A stretch of DNA of 64,000 bases from a virus. Lineage: Duplodnaviria; Heunggongvirae; Uroviricota; Caudoviricetes. Both the position numbers and the translations under genes were made by a program. The notes beneath the pieces are model-generated. The model was not told where the DNA came from and did no database searches. It saw only the letters and a program-made list of their open reading frames with translations. The DNA lies in IMG/VR virus record IMGVR_UViG_2565956726_000008; one strand, written 5' to 3'. This document shows, piece after piece, positions 14,901-22,679 of this stretch (position 1 is the first letter of the stretch; every line of letters begins with the position of its first letter).

Positions 14901-16819
14901 CGACAGCGGAATCACTGGAAACCATCACGGCAGAAATGAATGTGATGGACACAAACCTTAAAGGTCAGATCTCTAATGTGCAACGCGCAGTAGCTGACGA
15001 GGCCAGCGCCCGCGCTGAAGCTATTAACGGTGTAAATGCCTCAATAAGCAATCTTGACAAGAAAACTGACGCCAGCGTAAACCGTCTTGATCAGGCAATT
15101 GCAGACGAAACAAGTGCGCGTACTCAGGCTATCAGCGACGTGAACGCAAGTATCTCAACACTTGACAAGAAAACTGACGCCAGCGTTAAGCGCCTCGATA
15201 ATGCAATATCAGATGAAACGCAGGCAAGAAGCGACGCAATAACAGTGGTTAAAGCTGATTTAACAACGCTTGAAAATAACACAAATGCCAGTGTTAGCCG
15301 TCTTGATCAAGCTATCGCTGATGAATCAAGCGCACGTGCTCAGGCGATATCAGGTATCAGCGCGACGCTTGGCGGCGTTAAAAGTGAGGTTGATAAAAAC
15401 AGCGACGAGATAGATCAGGCGAAAGCAAGTCTGCAAAACGCATCTCTGGCGCTTATTAATAACTCAATGGCGCAAAGCAAGATGAGCACTGTTATTGAGG
15501 CGAAATACAGGAAAGGACAAACAAAAACAAAAGCGGAAATAGCAAGGGTAGACACAGCAATCGCAGATGAGGCGAGCGCACGCGCAGAAGCTATTAGCGG
15601 GGTTAATGCGTCAATTTCCACGCTCGATAGCAAGGTGACAAGCAACGTAACCAGGATGGATAAAGCGATCGCAGATGAGAAGAATGCACGCACTGACGCA
15701 ATCAGCAGCCTTAACTCATCGCTTACCAGTACGATTAATTCGAAAGTATCCGAAGTGTCAACTGCACTTTCTACGCATGAAACATCAAGCGCGGAAAAAT
15801 TTGGCCAGATCTCGGCATCTTTCGACGATGTAAACTCAAGCATCACGGAATGGTCACAGGCTATGGCAACGGCAGACGAGGCATTGTCAACCAGAATCGA
15901 CCAGTTGAAAGTAACTATTAACGGAAACACAACGGCGATAGAAACGACATCAAAAGCACTGACTGACTTCAAAGGTAACGTTGATGCGTCATATTCAATT
16001 AAGATTGCCACTGATAAAAACGGTATGAAATACGCTACAGGAATGTCGCTCGGCCTTACTGGTAGCGGGACTAACGTTCAATCGCAGTGTATTTTCCTCG
16101 TTGACCGTTTCGTGCTTATGACTGCGGCAGGTGGCTCCTATCAGACCCCGTTCTATGTTACTAACGGTGCTTGCTACATCCGTGATGCGTGGATCAGAGA
16201 CGCATCAATCACTACCGCGAAGATTGCGCAGCAAATTCAGTCAACCAACTATAAAGCTGGTTCGGCTGGCTGGATGCTAAATAAAAACGGCAATGCGGAG
16301 TTCAACAACGTCACTGTACGCGGTACGGTGTACGCAACATCTGGTAAATTCACTGGTGAGATTCAGGCCACAAGCGGGAAGTTTAAAGGTACAGTAGAGG
16401 CAAAGTCATTTGTCGGTGACGTTGCTAACATGGGGGTTGGTCCAGATCGAGTGCTTGGGCATAACGGAAGTTATAGCGCAACCATCACATATAAAGACAG
16501 CACGGATAATGCATTGACGAAATCAGTTATGCTTATGGCGACTATTTCATTAATGTCTGGTGAATATAGATCCACTTATAACGTAACGTTTAGTTGCGGA
16601 GATAAAAACAAAACAATTTCATATTACGTGCCTTATGGTGGATGCACATTAACAGTGCAATGCGCTTTTTCTGGTTTAAAAGCATCAGATATTATCGGGA
16701 AAATATATTGTCCTCAAACATCATCATCTGAAGGATACGCATATTGTACCGCGTTGTATTCTCCAACAATGATAGTAGCAAGAGGCACCGGATCATTTAG
16801 AACATCAACGACAGCATAA
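11957..16819 (+). CDS. host specificity / central tail fibre protein J (lambda gpJ homolog with extended repeat-rich fibre region)
   Basis: 1620 aa; N-terminal 1100 aa alignable with lambda J; followed by about 450 aa of coiled-coil-type repeats and a distinct C-terminal domain not resembling the lambda J LamB-binding end. Confidence 0.85.
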   Translation: MSSGGGKAKTPTLLNDNLYHKQFYRVLDILSEGPIYGPVNQKAPLNDVMLNDTPVTDANGNTSIPGISIAWRNGTADQSPINGFNAIESTVIVNAKVTHDTPIIRTVSDPNVTRVRLNLGVDALVQSDEKGNQYNTSVMLMVDVKPSSSSTWSLIKDIHIGPGKQSGEYLEAHIIKAPDEKPFDIRVRRITPDSNGDLLRNDTRWSSYSEIIDDNLSYPHTAVAGAVIDHDQYTDTPTRTYHLRGLIVDVPDNYNPETRTYSGLWLGGFKKAYTNNPAWLFRYLVKNERFGLARHAGYIDVDDGALYVLSQYCDQLVDDGYGGLEPRMTLNAYITEQMSARDLLDNIAGMFRGIALWDGQRLTVMIDAPQDPIATITNANVVDGAFTRSSIARAECYNAVIVSWTDPENGWEQSKEYVADDKLIARDGYNETTLEAFGCTSRGQAHRAGKWLIETAKREPSKFTFKMARDAIHFTPGDIIEILDNNRAGARLGGRIVANNGRAITVDKVDSEYIAAGDTISLLDSDGKFKKHQIIGVNGNIITLAAAPAWIRNGTVFAVSTNAAKPVLCRITSVAETENNSVYTIEAAQHDPHKQAVVDNGAIFEINNDTLNHFRVPNIENLKVLNVGSETVQCRATWETQTTTRRLTFEIRVYNAEGAVVKSYETTNYSYDFYGIDAGNYSLGIRGRNDTGMKGAESIVDLVIGAPAAPVGVNWVPGVFQATVYPISRTTLTTDTSYEFYYSGETQITDPASITTKAQYTGRGHQWTFGGMNTGHTYYVYVRARNAFGVSDFVEASGKPTENFDEITDYVTKDVMNSKQFKEMVGDIKDLGDRTDLIESATNDLKTATDNLKTATDNLTNITDDLRTETDNLTIETGSIKADTDTLKKETEDLYKKVKENADDIGQHESRIDSLEVSSEKVGSELAQAKASLQNASLALINNSLAQTNTRVTLTAQYKKGRTETKAEIDRIDNVIAEEKKATAESLETITAEMNVMDTNLKGQISNVQRAVADEASARAEAINGVNASISNLDKKTDASVNRLDQAIADETSARTQAISDVNASISTLDKKTDASVKRLDNAISDETQARSDAITVVKADLTTLENNTNASVSRLDQAIADESSARAQAISGISATLGGVKSEVDKNSDEIDQAKASLQNASLALINNSMAQSKMSTVIEAKYRKGQTKTKAEIARVDTAIADEASARAEAISGVNASISTLDSKVTSNVTRMDKAIADEKNARTDAISSLNSSLTSTINSKVSEVSTALSTHETSSAEKFGQISASFDDVNSSITEWSQAMATADEALSTRIDQLKVTINGNTTAIETTSKALTDFKGNVDASYSIKIATDKNGMKYATGMSLGLTGSGTNVQSQCIFLVDRFVLMTAAGGSYQTPFYVTNGACYIRDAWIRDASITTAKIAQQIQSTNYKAGSAGWMLNKNGNAEFNNVTVRGTVYATSGKFTGEIQATSGKFKGTVEAKSFVGDVANMGVGPDRVLGHNGSYSATITYKDSTDNALTKSVMLMATISLMSGEYRSTYNVTFSCGDKNKTISYYVPYGGCTLTVQCAFSGLKASDIIGKIYCPQTSSSEGYAYCTALYSPTMIVARGTGSFRTSTTA
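14455..14640 (+). repeat. tandem 21-bp (7-codon) repeats inside J
   Basis: Encodes ATNDLKTATDNLKTATDNLTNITDDLRTETDNLTIETGSIKADTDTLKKETEDL; repeated gctactgacaacctcaaaact-type units. Confidence 0.5.
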
Positions 16820-16822
16820 AAA

Positions 16823-16850
16823 ACGGGGCATAAGCCCCGTTTTTTTTTAT
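16823..16850. terminator. bidirectional terminator after J
   Basis: aaaaaacggggcataagccccgttttttttt: hairpin flanked by A-run and T-run between convergent genes. Confidence 0.6.
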
Positions 16851-16859
16851 GCATTGTTT

Positions 16860-17105
16860 TTATTTTTTACACCCATCATTTACACCAGAAAAATGGATAG
16901 GTAAATTACATTCACTGTCAATAATTTTACCTTGTAGTTGTTTTTCTTTCCATGAGTCAGTATTGAAATAACTCGAACGTTGGTTATCAAGGCCAGTATC
17001 ACCATATTGAGCAGTGCCAGCATCACTCTTATCTGTCGAATTTACAGAAGCAAAAGCACCAAAAGACAGAGCTGATAAGATGCAAGCAACAATTAGTTTT
17101 TTCAT
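16860..17105 (-). CDS. small secreted cysteine-containing protein (moron, lom/bor position)
   Basis: 81 aa from MKKLIVACILSALSFGAFA (signal peptide); three Cys in the last 20 residues; minus strand between J and the tail fibre gene. Confidence 0.5.
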   Translation of the reverse strand: MKKLIVACILSALSFGAFASVNSTDKSDAGTAQYGDTGLDNQRSSYFNTDSWKEKQLQGKIIDSECNLPIHFSGVNDGCKK

Positions 17106-17302
17106 TGTATTCACCTTACTGTTTGTTTTACTGTCATTTGTTGTTCGTGATGATCCACCCATCCGATGAGCAAATCACCGCAGAAGCTATCATTTCGTAT
17201 GTTGATATAGATCAAAAAATACACTATGTATAAGCCCAAAGTGTAACACAGATCACAAAATGGTAGAATTGTTTAGTTAATTAACAAAACGGAGTTATTG
17301 CG

Positions 17303-19099
17303 ATGATTTACACAACAGGCACTATAGCTGTTAGCGGAAACACAGTTACCGGGGCAGGGACTGAATTCAACGCCGCATTATCTCTGATCAGAGTGGGTTG
17401 CACTCTTATTGCCATTAGCGATCCGGTGCAGATTTTTTCAATCACAAAGGTAAAAAGCGCAACAAGTTTGTCGGTAACTCCTGCGGCAAGTCCGGCTATT
17501 CCGGCTGGAACTAAATTTAGCATCCTGCTTTCAGATTCGATCTCTGTGGATGGTCTTGCTCAGGATGTTGCCGAAACACTGCGTTACTACCAGGGCAAAG
17601 AATCAGAAATAGCTGACGCTGTGGAGTTTTTCAGCGACAACAAAGATGTGATTTCAGCATCAAAATTAGCATTAGCATCAGCTACCACTGCAACCAATGC
17701 GGCAACAACAGCGACAAGCGCCGCCGATTCAGCCAAGACATACAGAGACGAAGCCCACGAATACGCCAATCAGACCGCACAGCCTTACGCGTATGTTTTG
17801 CAACCGCTGCCGGACGTATGGATACCGTTTAACGATTCTCTCGATATGATCACGGGCTACGGCCCTGGTACTAAAAAAGTAACCATTAATGGGGAAGAAA
17901 AAACAATATCATCAGATAAAGTTGTTTCTTTCTCACGCGCAAGCACTGCTACTTACATTAACAAATCAGGTGTTTTAACTGTGGCTGGTATTAATGAGCC
18001 ACGTTTTGAACGCGAAGGATTACTGATTGAGGGGACGCGCACAAACCTGTTAATAAACAGTACAGACCCTTCGAAGTGGAATAAGTCAACTTCACTGGAC
18101 GTTACAGAAACAGGCACAGATAGTTTTGGGTTTAATTATGGCCGGTTTGTCGTACAGGATTCGATTGTTGGTACAAGTAAAGCGCATACCATTATCGGAC
18201 TGTATTCGAGTGCCGGAGGGGTTGATACTTCAGGGGACGAAAAGCATGTAACTATATCCTGTCGGGTAAAAAGTGAAGTTGATAATATCGCCGTTCGTAT
18301 TTTATTTGAACATTATGATGGGGAGGTAAGGACATCAATAGGAGCAGCAAACCTGAACCTTACCACCCGCATAATTAGCAAGACAGGTCAGACAAGCCGT
18401 GTTACAGCAAGGTCTGTTAAGGATGATGCAACTGGCTGGATATTTTTTGAGGCTACATTAAAAGCAGATACAACAGAAAATACGGTTGGTGGTTTCGTCC
18501 AGTATTCTCCGGATACAGGTCAGATGGTGGCATCAGGGGATTGTCTCGATGTAACCACTCCACAGATTGAGGCTGGTGCAGGCGCATCATCTTTTATTGT
18601 TACGGGGTCGGCACCAGCAACGCGGGCAAGCGATATGGTGACAGTCCCAATCAAGAATAACCTTTATAATCTTCCTTTTACGGTTCTTTGTGAGGTACAT
18701 AAGAACTGGTATAAAACGCCAAATGCAGCGCCGCGTGTTTTTGATACCGGCGGTCATCAAACCGGAGCGGCGATCGTAATGGGGTTTGGTTCATCAGGTG
18801 GGTACGACGGTTTTCCGTATTGTGATATAGGTGGTTCAAACCGACGAATAAATGAAAATGCCGGGCTGGAAAAAATACTTATTGGTATGCGGGTAAAGTC
18901 CGAACGGTCCACATGTGTAGTCAGTAACGGTAAGTTAAGCAGCGAAACAAAAACAACCTGGACTTATATTCAAAGCTCCGCAACTATTCGTATCGGTGGT
19001 CAGACAACGACAGGACAACGTCATTTATTTGGTCATGTTAGAAATTTTCGAGTATGGCATAAGGCATTAACTGATGCGCAATTAAGCGAAATTGTTTAA
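17303..19099 (+). CDS. tail fibre protein with LamG-like (jelly-roll) C-terminal domain, putative
   Basis: 598 aa; Ala/Thr-rich shaft segment (ASATTATNAATTATSAADSAKT); C-terminal NFRVWHKALTDAQLSEI resembles LamG-type domains in phage fibre proteins. Confidence 0.55.
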   Translation: MIYTTGTIAVSGNTVTGAGTEFNAALSLIRVGCTLIAISDPVQIFSITKVKSATSLSVTPAASPAIPAGTKFSILLSDSISVDGLAQDVAETLRYYQGKESEIADAVEFFSDNKDVISASKLALASATTATNAATTATSAADSAKTYRDEAHEYANQTAQPYAYVLQPLPDVWIPFNDSLDMITGYGPGTKKVTINGEEKTISSDKVVSFSRASTATYINKSGVLTVAGINEPRFEREGLLIEGTRTNLLINSTDPSKWNKSTSLDVTETGTDSFGFNYGRFVVQDSIVGTSKAHTIIGLYSSAGGVDTSGDEKHVTISCRVKSEVDNIAVRILFEHYDGEVRTSIGAANLNLTTRIISKTGQTSRVTARSVKDDATGWIFFEATLKADTTENTVGGFVQYSPDTGQMVASGDCLDVTTPQIEAGAGASSFIVTGSAPATRASDMVTVPIKNNLYNLPFTVLCEVHKNWYKTPNAAPRVFDTGGHQTGAAIVMGFGSSGGYDGFPYCDIGGSNRRINENAGLEKILIGMRVKSERSTCVVSNGKLSSETKTTWTYIQSSATIRIGGQTTTGQRHLFGHVRNFRVWHKALTDAQLSEIV

Positions 19100-19109
19100 G
19101 GTGGTTAAC

Positions 19110-19376
19110 ATGAAAGACGTTAGCTTGCAATTTACTGACAAACAGCAATACAACGACATTGTGATTAATAGCGGCTGGCTGGATGCCAATTGGTCAACCG
19201 TGTTTATTGATGATATCGGTTTTGTCCTTGTATTCGACGATCCAGAAAGCGAGACACCTGTACTTATTGGGAAAAAAGGTTATTACGTCAACGTGCGTAT
19301 AACTGGTGACGATGTTGATATTTCTCAGCTTGAGCCTTTCATCGTTCCAGATCCAGGCGTCCGCGCATGGGCTTAA
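19110..19376 (+). CDS. hypothetical protein downstream of tail fibre (possible fibre assembly/accessory)
   Basis: 88 aa from ATG at 19110 with AAGGTGG RBS, starting 11 nt after the fibre gene stop. Confidence 0.4.
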   Translation: MKDVSLQFTDKQQYNDIVINSGWLDANWSTVFIDDIGFVLVFDDPESETPVLIGKKGYYVNVRITGDDVDISQLEPFIVPDPGVRAWA

Positions 19377-19418
19377 TGATGCGGCAGTGATAGCATGGTG
19401 ATGTTGAAAGCATCGCCG

Positions 19419-19450
19419 AGAAACGAGGCTAACGCCTCGTTTCTTTTTGT
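19419..19450 (+). terminator. rho-independent terminator at end of prophage A late operon
   Basis: gaaacgaggctaacgcctcgtttc hairpin followed by TTTTTGT. Confidence 0.6.
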
Positions 19451-19823
19451 GTACCAAATAGTGACCAAATATCAAAAACTAAAATCAAAAACAACATAAC
19501 ATTATGTTTTATAAATGATTATTCGTTACACTAATCATTCCAGACAGGACTGGTGAGTAAGTCCAGGGTATTGAAGTTGTGCGTAATCATTGAGATCCCG
19601 TTATTTTTATCAATTTTTGTTGCTATCCGATCGCAAAAAAGCCACGTCATATGATCAGATAATTCTGATAATGATAGACGCTATTTAACACTTCACACGG
19701 TTTGTATATGGAAAAGCATTTTGCTTTTTGTATTCAATTTAGACAGAATTTTATTAATCATTTCAGGGTAATGGGGTGATGAGATGTTGCGTAACAGGGC
19801 CAGAAGGCTAGACTACAAAATAA

Positions 19824-20828
<1,005 letters not shown>

Positions 20829-20997
20829 CAAAAGCAATTTTTCCGGCTATCTGTATACAAAAACGCCGCAAAGTTTGAGCGAAGTCAATAAACTCTCTAC
20901 CCATTCAGGGCAATATCTCTCTTGCAGGTGAATGCAACGTCAAGCGATGGGCGTTGCGCTCCATATTGTCTTACTTCCTTTTTTGAATTACTGCATA

Positions 20998-21025
20998 GCA
21001 CAATTGATTCGTACGACGCCGACTT
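20998..21025 (+). terminator. rho-independent terminator downstream of zntB
   Basis: gccgactttgatgagtcggc hairpin followed by 8 T. Confidence 0.5.
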
Positions 21026-21102
21026 TGATGAGTCGGCTTTTTTTTGCCTGTTATTTATCAGCGTCTACCCTTTAAGAGTCCACCCAATGACCGGAGGGAA
21101 AT

Positions 21103-21276
21103 ATGACGACACTTATTTATTTGCAAATTCCTGTCCCTGAACCGATTCCTGGCGATCCTGTTCCAGTGCCCGATCCGATCCCTCGCCCGCAACCCATGCC
21201 TGACCCACCACCCGATGAAGAACCGATTAAATTGTCGCATCGTGAGCGTAGATCTGCGAGGATACGCGCCTGCTAA
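21103..21276 (+). CDS. proline-rich small ORF (57 aa) upstream of dbpA
   Basis: Not in the provided track (below 60 aa). ATG at 21103 preceded by GGAGGG; product MTTLIYLQIPVPEPIPGDPVPVPDPIPRPQPMPDPPPDEEPIKLSHRERRSARIRAC. Confidence 0.35.
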   Translation: MTTLIYLQIPVPEPIPGDPVPVPDPIPRPQPMPDPPPDEEPIKLSHRERRSARIRAC

Positions 21277-21305
21277 CTTTGCGTCGATGACCACGAGAAT
21301 AGATT

Positions 21306-22679
21306 GTGACCGCTTTTTCTACCCTGAATGTTTTGCCTCCCGCCCAACTCACGAACCTTAATGAGTTGGGTTATTTAACCATGACGCCGGTGCAGGCCGC
21401 CGCGCTTCCGGCGATCCTTGCCGGAAAAGATGTTCGCGTGCAGGCGAAAACCGGCAGCGGCAAAACGGCGGCTTTTGGCCTCGGCTTGTTACAGCAAATT
21501 GATGCGTCGCTATTTCAAACCCAGGCTTTAGTGCTGTGTCCTACGCGTGAACTGGCGGATCAGGTGGCAGGTGAATTGCGTCGGCTGGCGCGTTTTCTAC
21601 CAAATACCAAAATTTTGACGTTGTGCGGTGGTCAACCGTTCGGTATGCAGCGTGATTCGTTGCAACATGCGCCGCATATTATCGTGGCAACGCCGGGCCG
21701 TTTGTTGGATCATCTGCAAAAAGGCACGGTATCACTGGATGCGTTGAATACGCTGGTGATGGATGAGGCCGACCGCATGCTGGATATGGGATTTAGCGAC
21801 GCCATTGATGATGTCATCCGTTTTGCGCCAGCATCTCGACAGACGCTTCTGTTTTCGGCAACCTGGCCGGAAGCCATCGCCGCAATCAGCGGACGAGTGC
21901 AACGCGATCCTTTAGCGATTGAAATTGACTCAACAGATGCTCTGCCACCTATTGAACAACAATTTTATGAGACATCCAGCAAAGGCAAAATTCCGTTGTT
22001 GCAACGGTTATTAAGTTTACATCAGCCATCCTCTTGCGTGGTGTTTTGCAATACCAAAAAAGATTGCCAGGCTGTCTGCGACGCGCTGAATGAAGTAGGG
22101 CAAAGTGCATTGTCGTTACACGGCGATCTGGAGCAACGTGATCGCGATCAGACCCTGGTACGTTTTGCTAACGGTAGCGCCCGTGTACTGGTTGCGACTG
22201 ATGTTGCTGCGCGAGGTCTGGATATTAAATCGCTTGAGCTGGTGGTGAACTTTGAGCTGGCGTGGGATCCTGAAGTTCATGTACATCGCATCGGTCGTAC
22301 AGCGCGTGCAGGAAATAGCGGTCTGGCGATCAGTTTCTGTGCCCCGGAAGAAGCACAGCGGGCCAATATCATTTCTGACATGTTGCAGATAAAACTTAAC
22401 TGGCAAACGCCGCCAGTTAATAGTTCCATTGTGCCGCTGGAAGCCGAAATGGCAACGTTATGTATCGATGGCGGGAAAAAAGCCAAAATGCGCCCGGGTG
22501 ATGTATTAGGTGCGCTGACAGGAGATATCGGGCTTGATGGCGCAGATATTGGCAAAATCGCCGTGCATCCGGCGCATGTCTATGTCGCGGTGCGTCAGGC
22601 TGTTGCTCATAAAGCATGGAAACAGTTACAGGGCGGGAAGATTAAAGGAAAAACGTGCCGGGTGCGGTTATTAAAATAA
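21306..22679 (+). CDS. dbpA: ATP-dependent RNA helicase DbpA (DEAD-box)
   Basis: 457 aa, GTG start; Q-motif, Walker A (AKTGSGKT), DEAD, SAT and HRIGRTAR motifs; matches recollection of E. coli DbpA. Confidence 0.93.
   Translation: MTAFSTLNVLPPAQLTNLNELGYLTMTPVQAAALPAILAGKDVRVQAKTGSGKTAAFGLGLLQQIDASLFQTQALVLCPTRELADQVAGELRRLARFLPNTKILTLCGGQPFGMQRDSLQHAPHIIVATPGRLLDHLQKGTVSLDALNTLVMDEADRMLDMGFSDAIDDVIRFAPASRQTLLFSATWPEAIAAISGRVQRDPLAIEIDSTDALPPIEQQFYETSSKGKIPLLQRLLSLHQPSSCVVFCNTKKDCQAVCDALNEVGQSALSLHGDLEQRDRDQTLVRFANGSARVLVATDVAARGLDIKSLELVVNFELAWDPEVHVHRIGRTARAGNSGLAISFCAPEEAQRANIISDMLQIKLNWQTPPVNSSIVPLEAEMATLCIDGGKKAKMRPGDVLGALTGDIGLDGADIGKIAVHPAHVYVAVRQAVAHKAWKQLQGGKIKGKTCRVRLLK

Follow-up and report, generated by a model that had tools for sequence, protein, structure and literature searches.

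SecM, TnaC, and MifM are nascent-chain arrest peptides, the SecM motif being GIRAGP. For proline-containing leader open reading frames (ORFs) under the control of EF-P, there is a precedent in mgtP, in the leader of Salmonella mgtCBR (PMC5299641; PMC3641672), and EF-P has been assigned a role in transcription-translation coupling (PMC5021804). The sequence contexts that make translation dependent on EF-P have also been described: Asp preceding a diprolyl sequence and Asp following it are both strong contexts (PMC4176338), and the highest pause scores include those of PPD and PPP (PMC13602936). An ORF that is short, has consecutive proline codons, and is located immediately upstream of another gene invites comparison with both kinds of system. 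In Escherichia coli K-12, one such ORF, ynaL, is on record as a small-protein gene. VanOrsdel et al. (2018; PMC6001520) list a YnaL protein of 57 aa in the table row 'ynaL fnrS/dbpA 1409308-1409481' and detected YnaL carrying a chromosomal SPA tag by immunoblot. Nakahigashi et al. (2016; PMC4909307) obtained the ynaL start codon by tetracycline-inhibited ribosome profiling (TetRP), and their supplementary file 3 contains, as entry P_ECK1339_1340_1407332, a + strand ORF of 57 aa with DNA and protein sequences identical to those of YnaL. Here we compare the ynaL locus present in a 64,000-nucleotide stretch of DNA (the whole of which we refer to as 'the window') with the corresponding loci of other enterobacteria and with these described systems.

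Results

The ORF upstream of dbpA is ynaL

An earlier note on this DNA, made from the letters alone, had described a proline-rich, 57-codon frame that contains a PPP run, opens with an ATG at 21103 behind a GGAGGG, and lies upstream of dbpA, and the sequence agrees exactly with that description. The Shine-Dalgarno sequence GGAGGG, read from the sequence at 21093–21098 (+ strand), is followed by a 4-nt spacer and by the ATG (21103–21105), and the frame (21103–21276, + strand) comprises 57 codons, terminates with a TAA (21274–21276), and has the translation MTTLIYLQIPVPEPIPGDPVPVPDPIPRPQPMPDPPPDEEPIKLSHRERRSARIRAC. The note had called this ORF 'unlisted'; it is, in fact, annotated as ynaL both in K-12 and in RefSeq. 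In the annotation of E. coli K-12 MG1655, ynaL is b4743 (YP_009518775.1; 1409308..1409481), with fnrS (b4699) on one side and dbpA (b1343) on the other. A 571-bp query around the ORF is matched at at least 95% identity in 5393 of 5426 complete E. coli genomes, and in those genomes the RefSeq name of the ORF is "ynaL: proline-rich small protein YnaL." The same identification is given by Pfam PF23677 ('Protein YnaL-like'), for which the translation scores 136.9 bits against a cut-off of 27, with residues 1–57 aligning on profile positions 1–57.

The note had also suggested that the ORF could encode a small protein, and published data bear this out: the YnaL start is present in TetRP data, and the SPA-tagged protein is visible on an immunoblot. 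Ribosome occupancy, which the note had put forward as a check, is likewise documented, by the TetRP start-site entry with the same 57 aa (Nakahigashi et al., 2016). We conclude that the 21103–21276 ORF is ynaL, a genuine, translated, and already catalogued E. coli small-protein gene. The ORF itself adds nothing new, because the K-12 annotation has included ynaL since the small-protein studies of 2018. In the literature searched, no function, partner, or phenotype of YnaL is reported, and discussion of YnaL in a main text is confined to VanOrsdel et al. (2018).

The neighborhood of the gene in the window has two further features. Phage genes, encoding a tail tip fibre protein (17303–19099), a head spike fibre domain protein, and hypothetical proteins, occupy window positions 16500–19840, directly upstream of ynaN-zntB; at least 80% of this stretch is common to only 9 of 5426 complete E. 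coli genomes, and the strain is therefore one with an uncommon prophage, or prophage remnant, at the site. The ynaN gene (b4773 in K-12), an ORF of 15 codons just upstream of zntB, is located at about 19784–19831, as judged from the K-12 offset and from RefSeq annotation of near-identical strains.

The ynaL frame is under purifying selection

A scan of one genome per species yielded 45 loci, and 41 distinct sequences were used for codon analysis. The gene order zntB-fnrS-ynaL-dbpA is present in the window and at every usable locus of the scan. The ORF, its Shine-Dalgarno sequence, and its ATG are preserved at 43 of 43 usable loci of other species, and their conservation extends through the Enterobacteriaceae and to Mixta, with GGAGG(G) followed by ATG preserved in each genus examined. 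Within a 39-codon core, the variable columns of the 41 sequences comprise 29 third positions, as compared to 11 first positions and 10 second positions, and the pooled pN/pS ratio is 0.18 in the YnaL frame, as compared to 2.3–2.6 in the shifted frames. Across codons 18–40, amino acids are held and wobble positions are free, with all four proline codons occurring at most positions. Conservation of the frame in other species, which the earlier note had named as a second check, is confirmed by the counts of preserved loci together with this pN/pS ratio. A 57-codon frame alone could be a chance occurrence in C-rich, stop-poor DNA; the ORF is identified as real because it is conserved.

Two alternatives would deny ynaL a selected protein product. 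According to the first, ynaL is a chance or pervasively translated ORF without a selected product, and its conservation reflects the 5' region of dbpA or the DNA itself. The last third of ynaL accords with this, being conserved as nucleotides rather than as peptide (see below), but the retention of amino acids with free wobble in codons 18–40, the pN/pS ratio of 0.18, the conservation of the Shine-Dalgarno sequence and ATG, and the retention of ynaL at loci without dbpA are all contrary to it. We judge this reading highly improbable, and we regard it as already refuted by the pattern of substitution. According to the second alternative, the real gene is an antisense ORF of 78 aa (21058–21294, minus strand). 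In its favor, the wobble positions of one antisense frame coincide with those of ynaL, and the pN/pS ratio of that frame is also low, 0.24. However, the antisense ORF is open at only 11 of 38 loci, the longest open stretch outside Escherichia is 38–65 codons, and the experimentally determined start site and the tag are both on the + strand. We rejected the antisense ORF, since it is interrupted in most genera, and we consider its chance of being the gene to be next to nothing.

Homologues of YnaL are found in Citrobacter, Salmonella, Enterobacter, Klebsiella, Leclercia, Kosakonia, Raoultella, and Mixta. The YnaL family is small: when 1.84 billion representative proteins were searched exhaustively with a profile, only 35 clusters were recovered at E ≤ 0.001. 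In the alignment of homologues, the N-terminus is variable and the C-proximal 40 residues are conserved.

Some of the public records of this locus have peculiarities of their own. In Shigella flexneri SFBU1023 (L017), ynaL, zntB, and dbpA are apparently frameshifted or degraded, which could be pseudogenisation or sequencing error, and the records L002 and L003 have probable labelling or contamination problems. A 336-bp contig assigned to 'Alkalicoccobacillus porphyridii' has 100% identity to the fnrS-ynaL region of E. coli; the chromosome of 'Enterobacter hormaechei strain B17-3' has a ynaL identical to that of E. coli and a DbpA that is 98.9% identical.

The constant neighbor of ynaL is fnrS

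The earlier note had placed the ORF downstream of a 'zntB terminator.' The feature at that position is actually the gene for the FnrS sRNA together with its own intrinsic terminator (20924–21045, + strand), as established with Rfam RF01796 and a terminator scan, the terminator consisting of a stem at 21018–21037 and a T run. The match to RF01796 (FnrS) extends from 20924 to 21041, covers model positions 1–119 of 119, and scores 134.8 bits against a gathering threshold of 60 (E = 1.4e-25); no other Rfam family was found in 20000–22000 at E ≤ 1. In the K-12 annotation, fnrS (b4699) is 122 nt in length. At every locus examined, including loci that lack dbpA and those of Mixta (Erwiniaceae), ynaL is located directly 3' of fnrS. 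We conclude that the constant neighbor of ynaL is fnrS, not dbpA.

Conservation between the two genes points to a candidate sigma-70-type promoter for ynaL, TTGCCT (21044–21049)-N16-TACCCT (21066–21071), at 21044–21071 on the + strand, with its −35 element located inside the FnrS terminator tail. The candidate promoter is exact at 38 of 46 loci and, at 4 more, differs by one base and has the same spacing; the sequence of the spacer varies. A consensus promoter scan reported no site between fnrS and dbpA, and missed TTGCCT-N16-TACCCT because both hexamers are weak.

Pairing of FnrS with ynaL-dbpA RNA was evaluated and rejected, the duplex energy being worse than that of 198 of 200 shuffles. A literature search on dbpA and FnrS read-through returned nothing useful.

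Selection on ynaL is retained at loci that lack dbpA

The C-terminus of YnaL occurs in three forms. In type A, to which E. coli YnaL belongs, the protein ends with ...EEPIKLSHxxxRSARIRAC, and dbpA lies downstream. Type B, which accounts for 25 of 153 clusters and is found in Kosakonia cowanii and elsewhere, has a stop right after IKLS(H)R. The type B form is fixed across many K. cowanii genomes, and the premature stops at the type B loci L050 (Kosakonia-like), L057, and L058 are TAA, TGA, and TAG, respectively. Type C ends ...DPPPH(R/M), that is, with a further DPPPH(R/M), and occurs in Phytobacter diazotrophicus, Mixta (Erwiniaceae), Scandinavium, and one further lineage (loci L049, L051/L052, L053, and L055). 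In all four type C lineages, the order is zntB-fnrS-ynaL-terminator hairpin-convergent ttcA, and dbpA is absent.

Strict linkage of ynaL to dbpA thus fails at five loci, in four lineages, where dbpA is missing and a terminator comes right after ynaL. For the 23-codon core that the dbpA-less loci share, pS is 0.76 and pN is 0.13, giving a ratio of 0.18. Since ynaL is under purifying selection at loci where nothing lies downstream, ynaL is not only a leader for dbpA, and the 'regulatory leader peptide' that the earlier note had entertained is not supported as the main role of the gene. The dbpA-less loci carry a different YnaL C-terminus, and a divergence in function could in principle accompany it. 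The C-terminal tail is dispensable as a peptide.

The last third of ynaL contains two nucleotide blocks linked to dbpA

Two blocks in the last third of ynaL are invariant as nucleotides. Block 1, CCGATTAAATTGTCGCATC (21223–21241, + strand), corresponds to codons 41–46 (CCG ATT AAA TTG TCG CAT) and is invariant at wobble positions as well; block 2, AGATCTGCGAGGATACGCGCC (21250–21270, + strand), corresponds to codons 50–56 (AGA TCT GCG AGG ATA CGC GCC) and includes the rare codons AGA, AGG, and ATA. Across the 41 distinct sequences, from Escherichia to Klebsiella, blocks 1 and 2 show essentially zero synonymous change, and the 9 nt between them vary freely. Both blocks are present at 42 of 42 loci with dbpA and at none of the 5 loci that lack it. 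Three independent type B lineages have their premature stop within the variable stretch, and block 2, which in them is downstream of the stop and untranslated, is still conserved. From this pattern of conservation we conclude that the RSARIRAC tail is largely a by-product of reading through a dbpA-linked, nucleotide-level element. Blocks 1 and 2 are probably a control element of dbpA; one possibility is that they are a dbpA promoter or mRNA leader.

Block 2 contains a possible hairpin, AUCU-GCGA-GGAU, with a GNRA loop (21252–21263); its four pairs never vary. We make no claim for a sigma-70 promoter of dbpA within ynaL: none was returned by the consensus scan, and the candidate that can be picked by eye, with TGcGAGGAT as an extended −10 element followed by GC-rich ACGCGCC, is weak. 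Mimicry of the DbpA substrate (23S rRNA nt 2454–2606, hairpin 92) by the 3' end of ynaL plus the dbpA leader was also considered, and was rejected; shuffles scored at least equal to the actual alignment in 351 of 500 cases with the fragment and in 130 of 200 cases with the whole 23S rRNA.

The proline-rich core is predicted to be extended and to contain an EF-P-dependent stall site

The part of YnaL that is common to all family members is the proline-rich core, EPIPGDPVPVPDPIPRPQPMPDPPP, comprising residues 14–37 (21142–21213, + strand; delimited from the codon table). The core is acidic, consists of repeated (D/E)P-x-P units, and has DPPP at its end. Its pN/pS ratio is the same, 0.18, at loci with dbpA and at loci without dbpA. 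In an AlphaFold2 model of YnaL, residues 21–40 have a pLDDT of ~90, there is no helix or strand, and the pTM is 0.23, and the core is predicted to adopt an extended conformation of the polyproline type, without a globular fold. A PDB search with YnaL returned zero chains at E ≤ 1. Against the TonB polyproline region, YnaL scores 11 bits, as compared to a cut-off of 33 (PF16031), and 20.8 bits, as compared to a cut-off of 315 (NF008084). With scores this far under the cut-offs, and with a resemblance that is compositional only, we reject membership of YnaL in the TonB family.

The DPPPD motif at residues 34–38 (21202–21216, + strand), read from the sequence, is a predicted EF-P-dependent stall site. 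PPP is present in 142 of 153 YnaL family clusters (93%). PSP, without any diprolyl sequence, takes the place of PPP in E. albertii and the Citrobacter youngae/pasteurii group, the latter a well-populated clade. The earlier note had linked the PPP run to EF-P-dependent pausing, which is a reasonable prediction: it is plausible, from its sequence context, that the DPPPD of ynaL is an EF-P-dependent pause site; in the literature searched, we found no report on ynaL in efp mutants.

The RNA encoding the core is rut-like: it contains 46% C and 18% G, and it is at the 99.98th percentile for C>G within the window. It is conceivable that, upon failure of ynaL translation, such RNA would subject dbpA to Rho-dependent polarity, a concept that has been described (PMC5021804).

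Weighing ynaL as a leader ORF for dbpA

The downstream neighbor, dbpA, identified by its ORF and annotation, encodes an ATP-dependent RNA helicase of 457 aa (21306–22679, + strand). Its start region (21292–21308, + strand) has a weak GAGA Shine-Dalgarno sequence, a GUG start codon at 21306, and, in folds, a possible 5-bp hairpin, CACGA-N7-UUGUG. The GTG at 21306 is located 29 nt past the ynaL stop, and the spacing is 27–29 nt in most genera. The CACGA-N7-UUGUG hairpin recurs in per-species minimum-free-energy folds, 94.7% of the cells pair, and the changes in it are one-sided only. For the candidate helices taken together (AUCU-GCGA-GGAU, CACGA-N7-UUGUG, and a long-range helix pairing block 1 with the dbpA start), pairing reaches 97–98% of alignment cells; no compensatory changes in the candidate ynaL-dbpA leader helices were found in the alignment, and the folding energy of the leader is no better than that of shuffled sequence (z = 0.03 and +1.67). 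No reporter fusions on the effect of ynaL translation on dbpA were found in the literature searched.

If the main role of ynaL were that of a cis-acting leader ORF for dbpA, ribosomes would pause at DPPPD, in an EF-P-dependent manner, and/or at the rare codons AGA..AGG AUA, the position of the ribosome would set the exposure of the dbpA start or the loading of Rho on C-rich RNA, and synthesis of DbpA would report translation capacity, an arrangement similar to the control of mgtCBR by mgtP and EF-P or to the SecM and TnaC leaders. Much of the local architecture is consistent with this hypothesis: in most genera, 27–29 nt separate the end of ynaL from the dbpA GUG; this start has a weak Shine-Dalgarno sequence and is within helices able to form in 97–98% of alignment cells; D-PPP-D is a strong stall context (PMC4176338; PMC13602936), with PPP in 142 of 153 clusters; the core RNA, at 46% C and 18% G, is rut-like; the C-proximal part is conserved, unlike the variable N-terminus; and EF-P-dependent leader control has precedents (PMC5299641; PMC5021804). 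However, ynaL is under purifying selection in the four dbpA-less lineages, where a terminator directly follows it; PSP, without any diprolyl sequence, is present in E. albertii and the Citrobacter clade; tagged YnaL accumulates; neither covariation nor significant folding energy was found for a switch structure; and stops 33 nt earlier are fixed in K. cowanii and elsewhere, shifting the site of termination relative to dbpA. We consider it doubtful that ynaL is mainly a leader ORF, and a pure leader-peptide role is unlikely.

Discussion

Our analysis establishes the identity of the gene, its translation, selection on its coding sequence, its synteny, and conservation of its last third at the level of nucleotides. 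The details that are new are comparative: the linkage of ynaL to fnrS, the three types of YnaL tail, and the invariant blocks linked to dbpA.

The explanation that we favor, with moderate confidence, is that YnaL is a free-standing, proline-rich small protein that acts in trans, with a partner of its own, and that the tail of ynaL in E. coli-type loci overlaps a cis element of dbpA, with coupling a likely consequence. According to this explanation, the acidic polyproline core is selected as a peptide, and YnaL would act in trans with its own partner, as selection on the core and gene context suggest; action in trans is the most likely mode, because the constant neighbor of ynaL is fnrS, not dbpA. 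At loci of the E. coli, Salmonella, Klebsiella, and Enterobacter type, the last third of ynaL would be translated through the dbpA cis element formed by blocks 1 and 2, a putative promoter or mRNA leader. Translation of ynaL would likely affect the amount of DbpA, because it ends 29 nt short of a weak GUG; the effect would be exerted through translational coupling or through protection from Rho. Action in trans, coupling to dbpA, and sensitivity of DPPPD to EF-P are what we infer from these comparisons. One property of the protein counts against action in trans: a variable N-terminus together with 40 conserved C-proximal residues also fits nascent-chain arrest peptides.

The substrate of the DbpA helicase is hairpin 92 of 23S rRNA, beside the peptidyl-transferase center. 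A further reading, to which we give little credence, combines elements of those above: in species with dbpA, the 3' third of ynaL would be the control region of dbpA, and ribosome passage over DPPPD and over AGA/AGG/AUA would set DbpA synthesis, while YnaL would also be free-standing, travelling with the anaerobic sRNA gene fnrS. If true, this would amount to a feedback loop, in which the performance of peptide-bond formation, sensed on a proline peptide that is hard to translate, tunes a 50S assembly factor.

The comparisons narrow the question of what YnaL does: the core is selected with or without dbpA, fnrS always precedes ynaL, and the tail, which is dispensable as a peptide, overlaps an element found only with dbpA. 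This should be useful for placing mutations, and for choosing species, in functional work on YnaL or on dbpA regulation.

Comparison with known systems

The closest known counterpart is YnaL of E. coli K-12, which has the same 57-aa sequence and the same position between fnrS and dbpA and shows no difference: the window carries this very gene, from a different E. coli strain.

The TonB polyproline region resembles YnaL in having acidic X-Pro repeats and in being, likely, an extended rod; the domains of TonB, however, are absent from YnaL.

Leaders of the mgtP type have in common with ynaL that each contains consecutive proline codons in a short ORF located upstream of, and on the same strand as, another gene, and the stall context in ynaL is predicted to be strong. 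The differences are that YnaL accumulates as a protein, that ynaL is kept in several lineages without the downstream gene, that PPP is not universal in ynaL, and that alternative RNA structures are not supported.

The arrest peptides SecM, TnaC, and MifM share with YnaL a conserved C-proximal peptide, a variable N-terminus, and an ORF placed just before a gene whose start may be sequestered, and the IRA of the SecM motif GIRAGP is present in the YnaL tail too. In YnaL, however, conservation of the tail containing IRA is at the nucleotide and not the peptide level, and the tail is missing in many lineages, namely those with types B and C.
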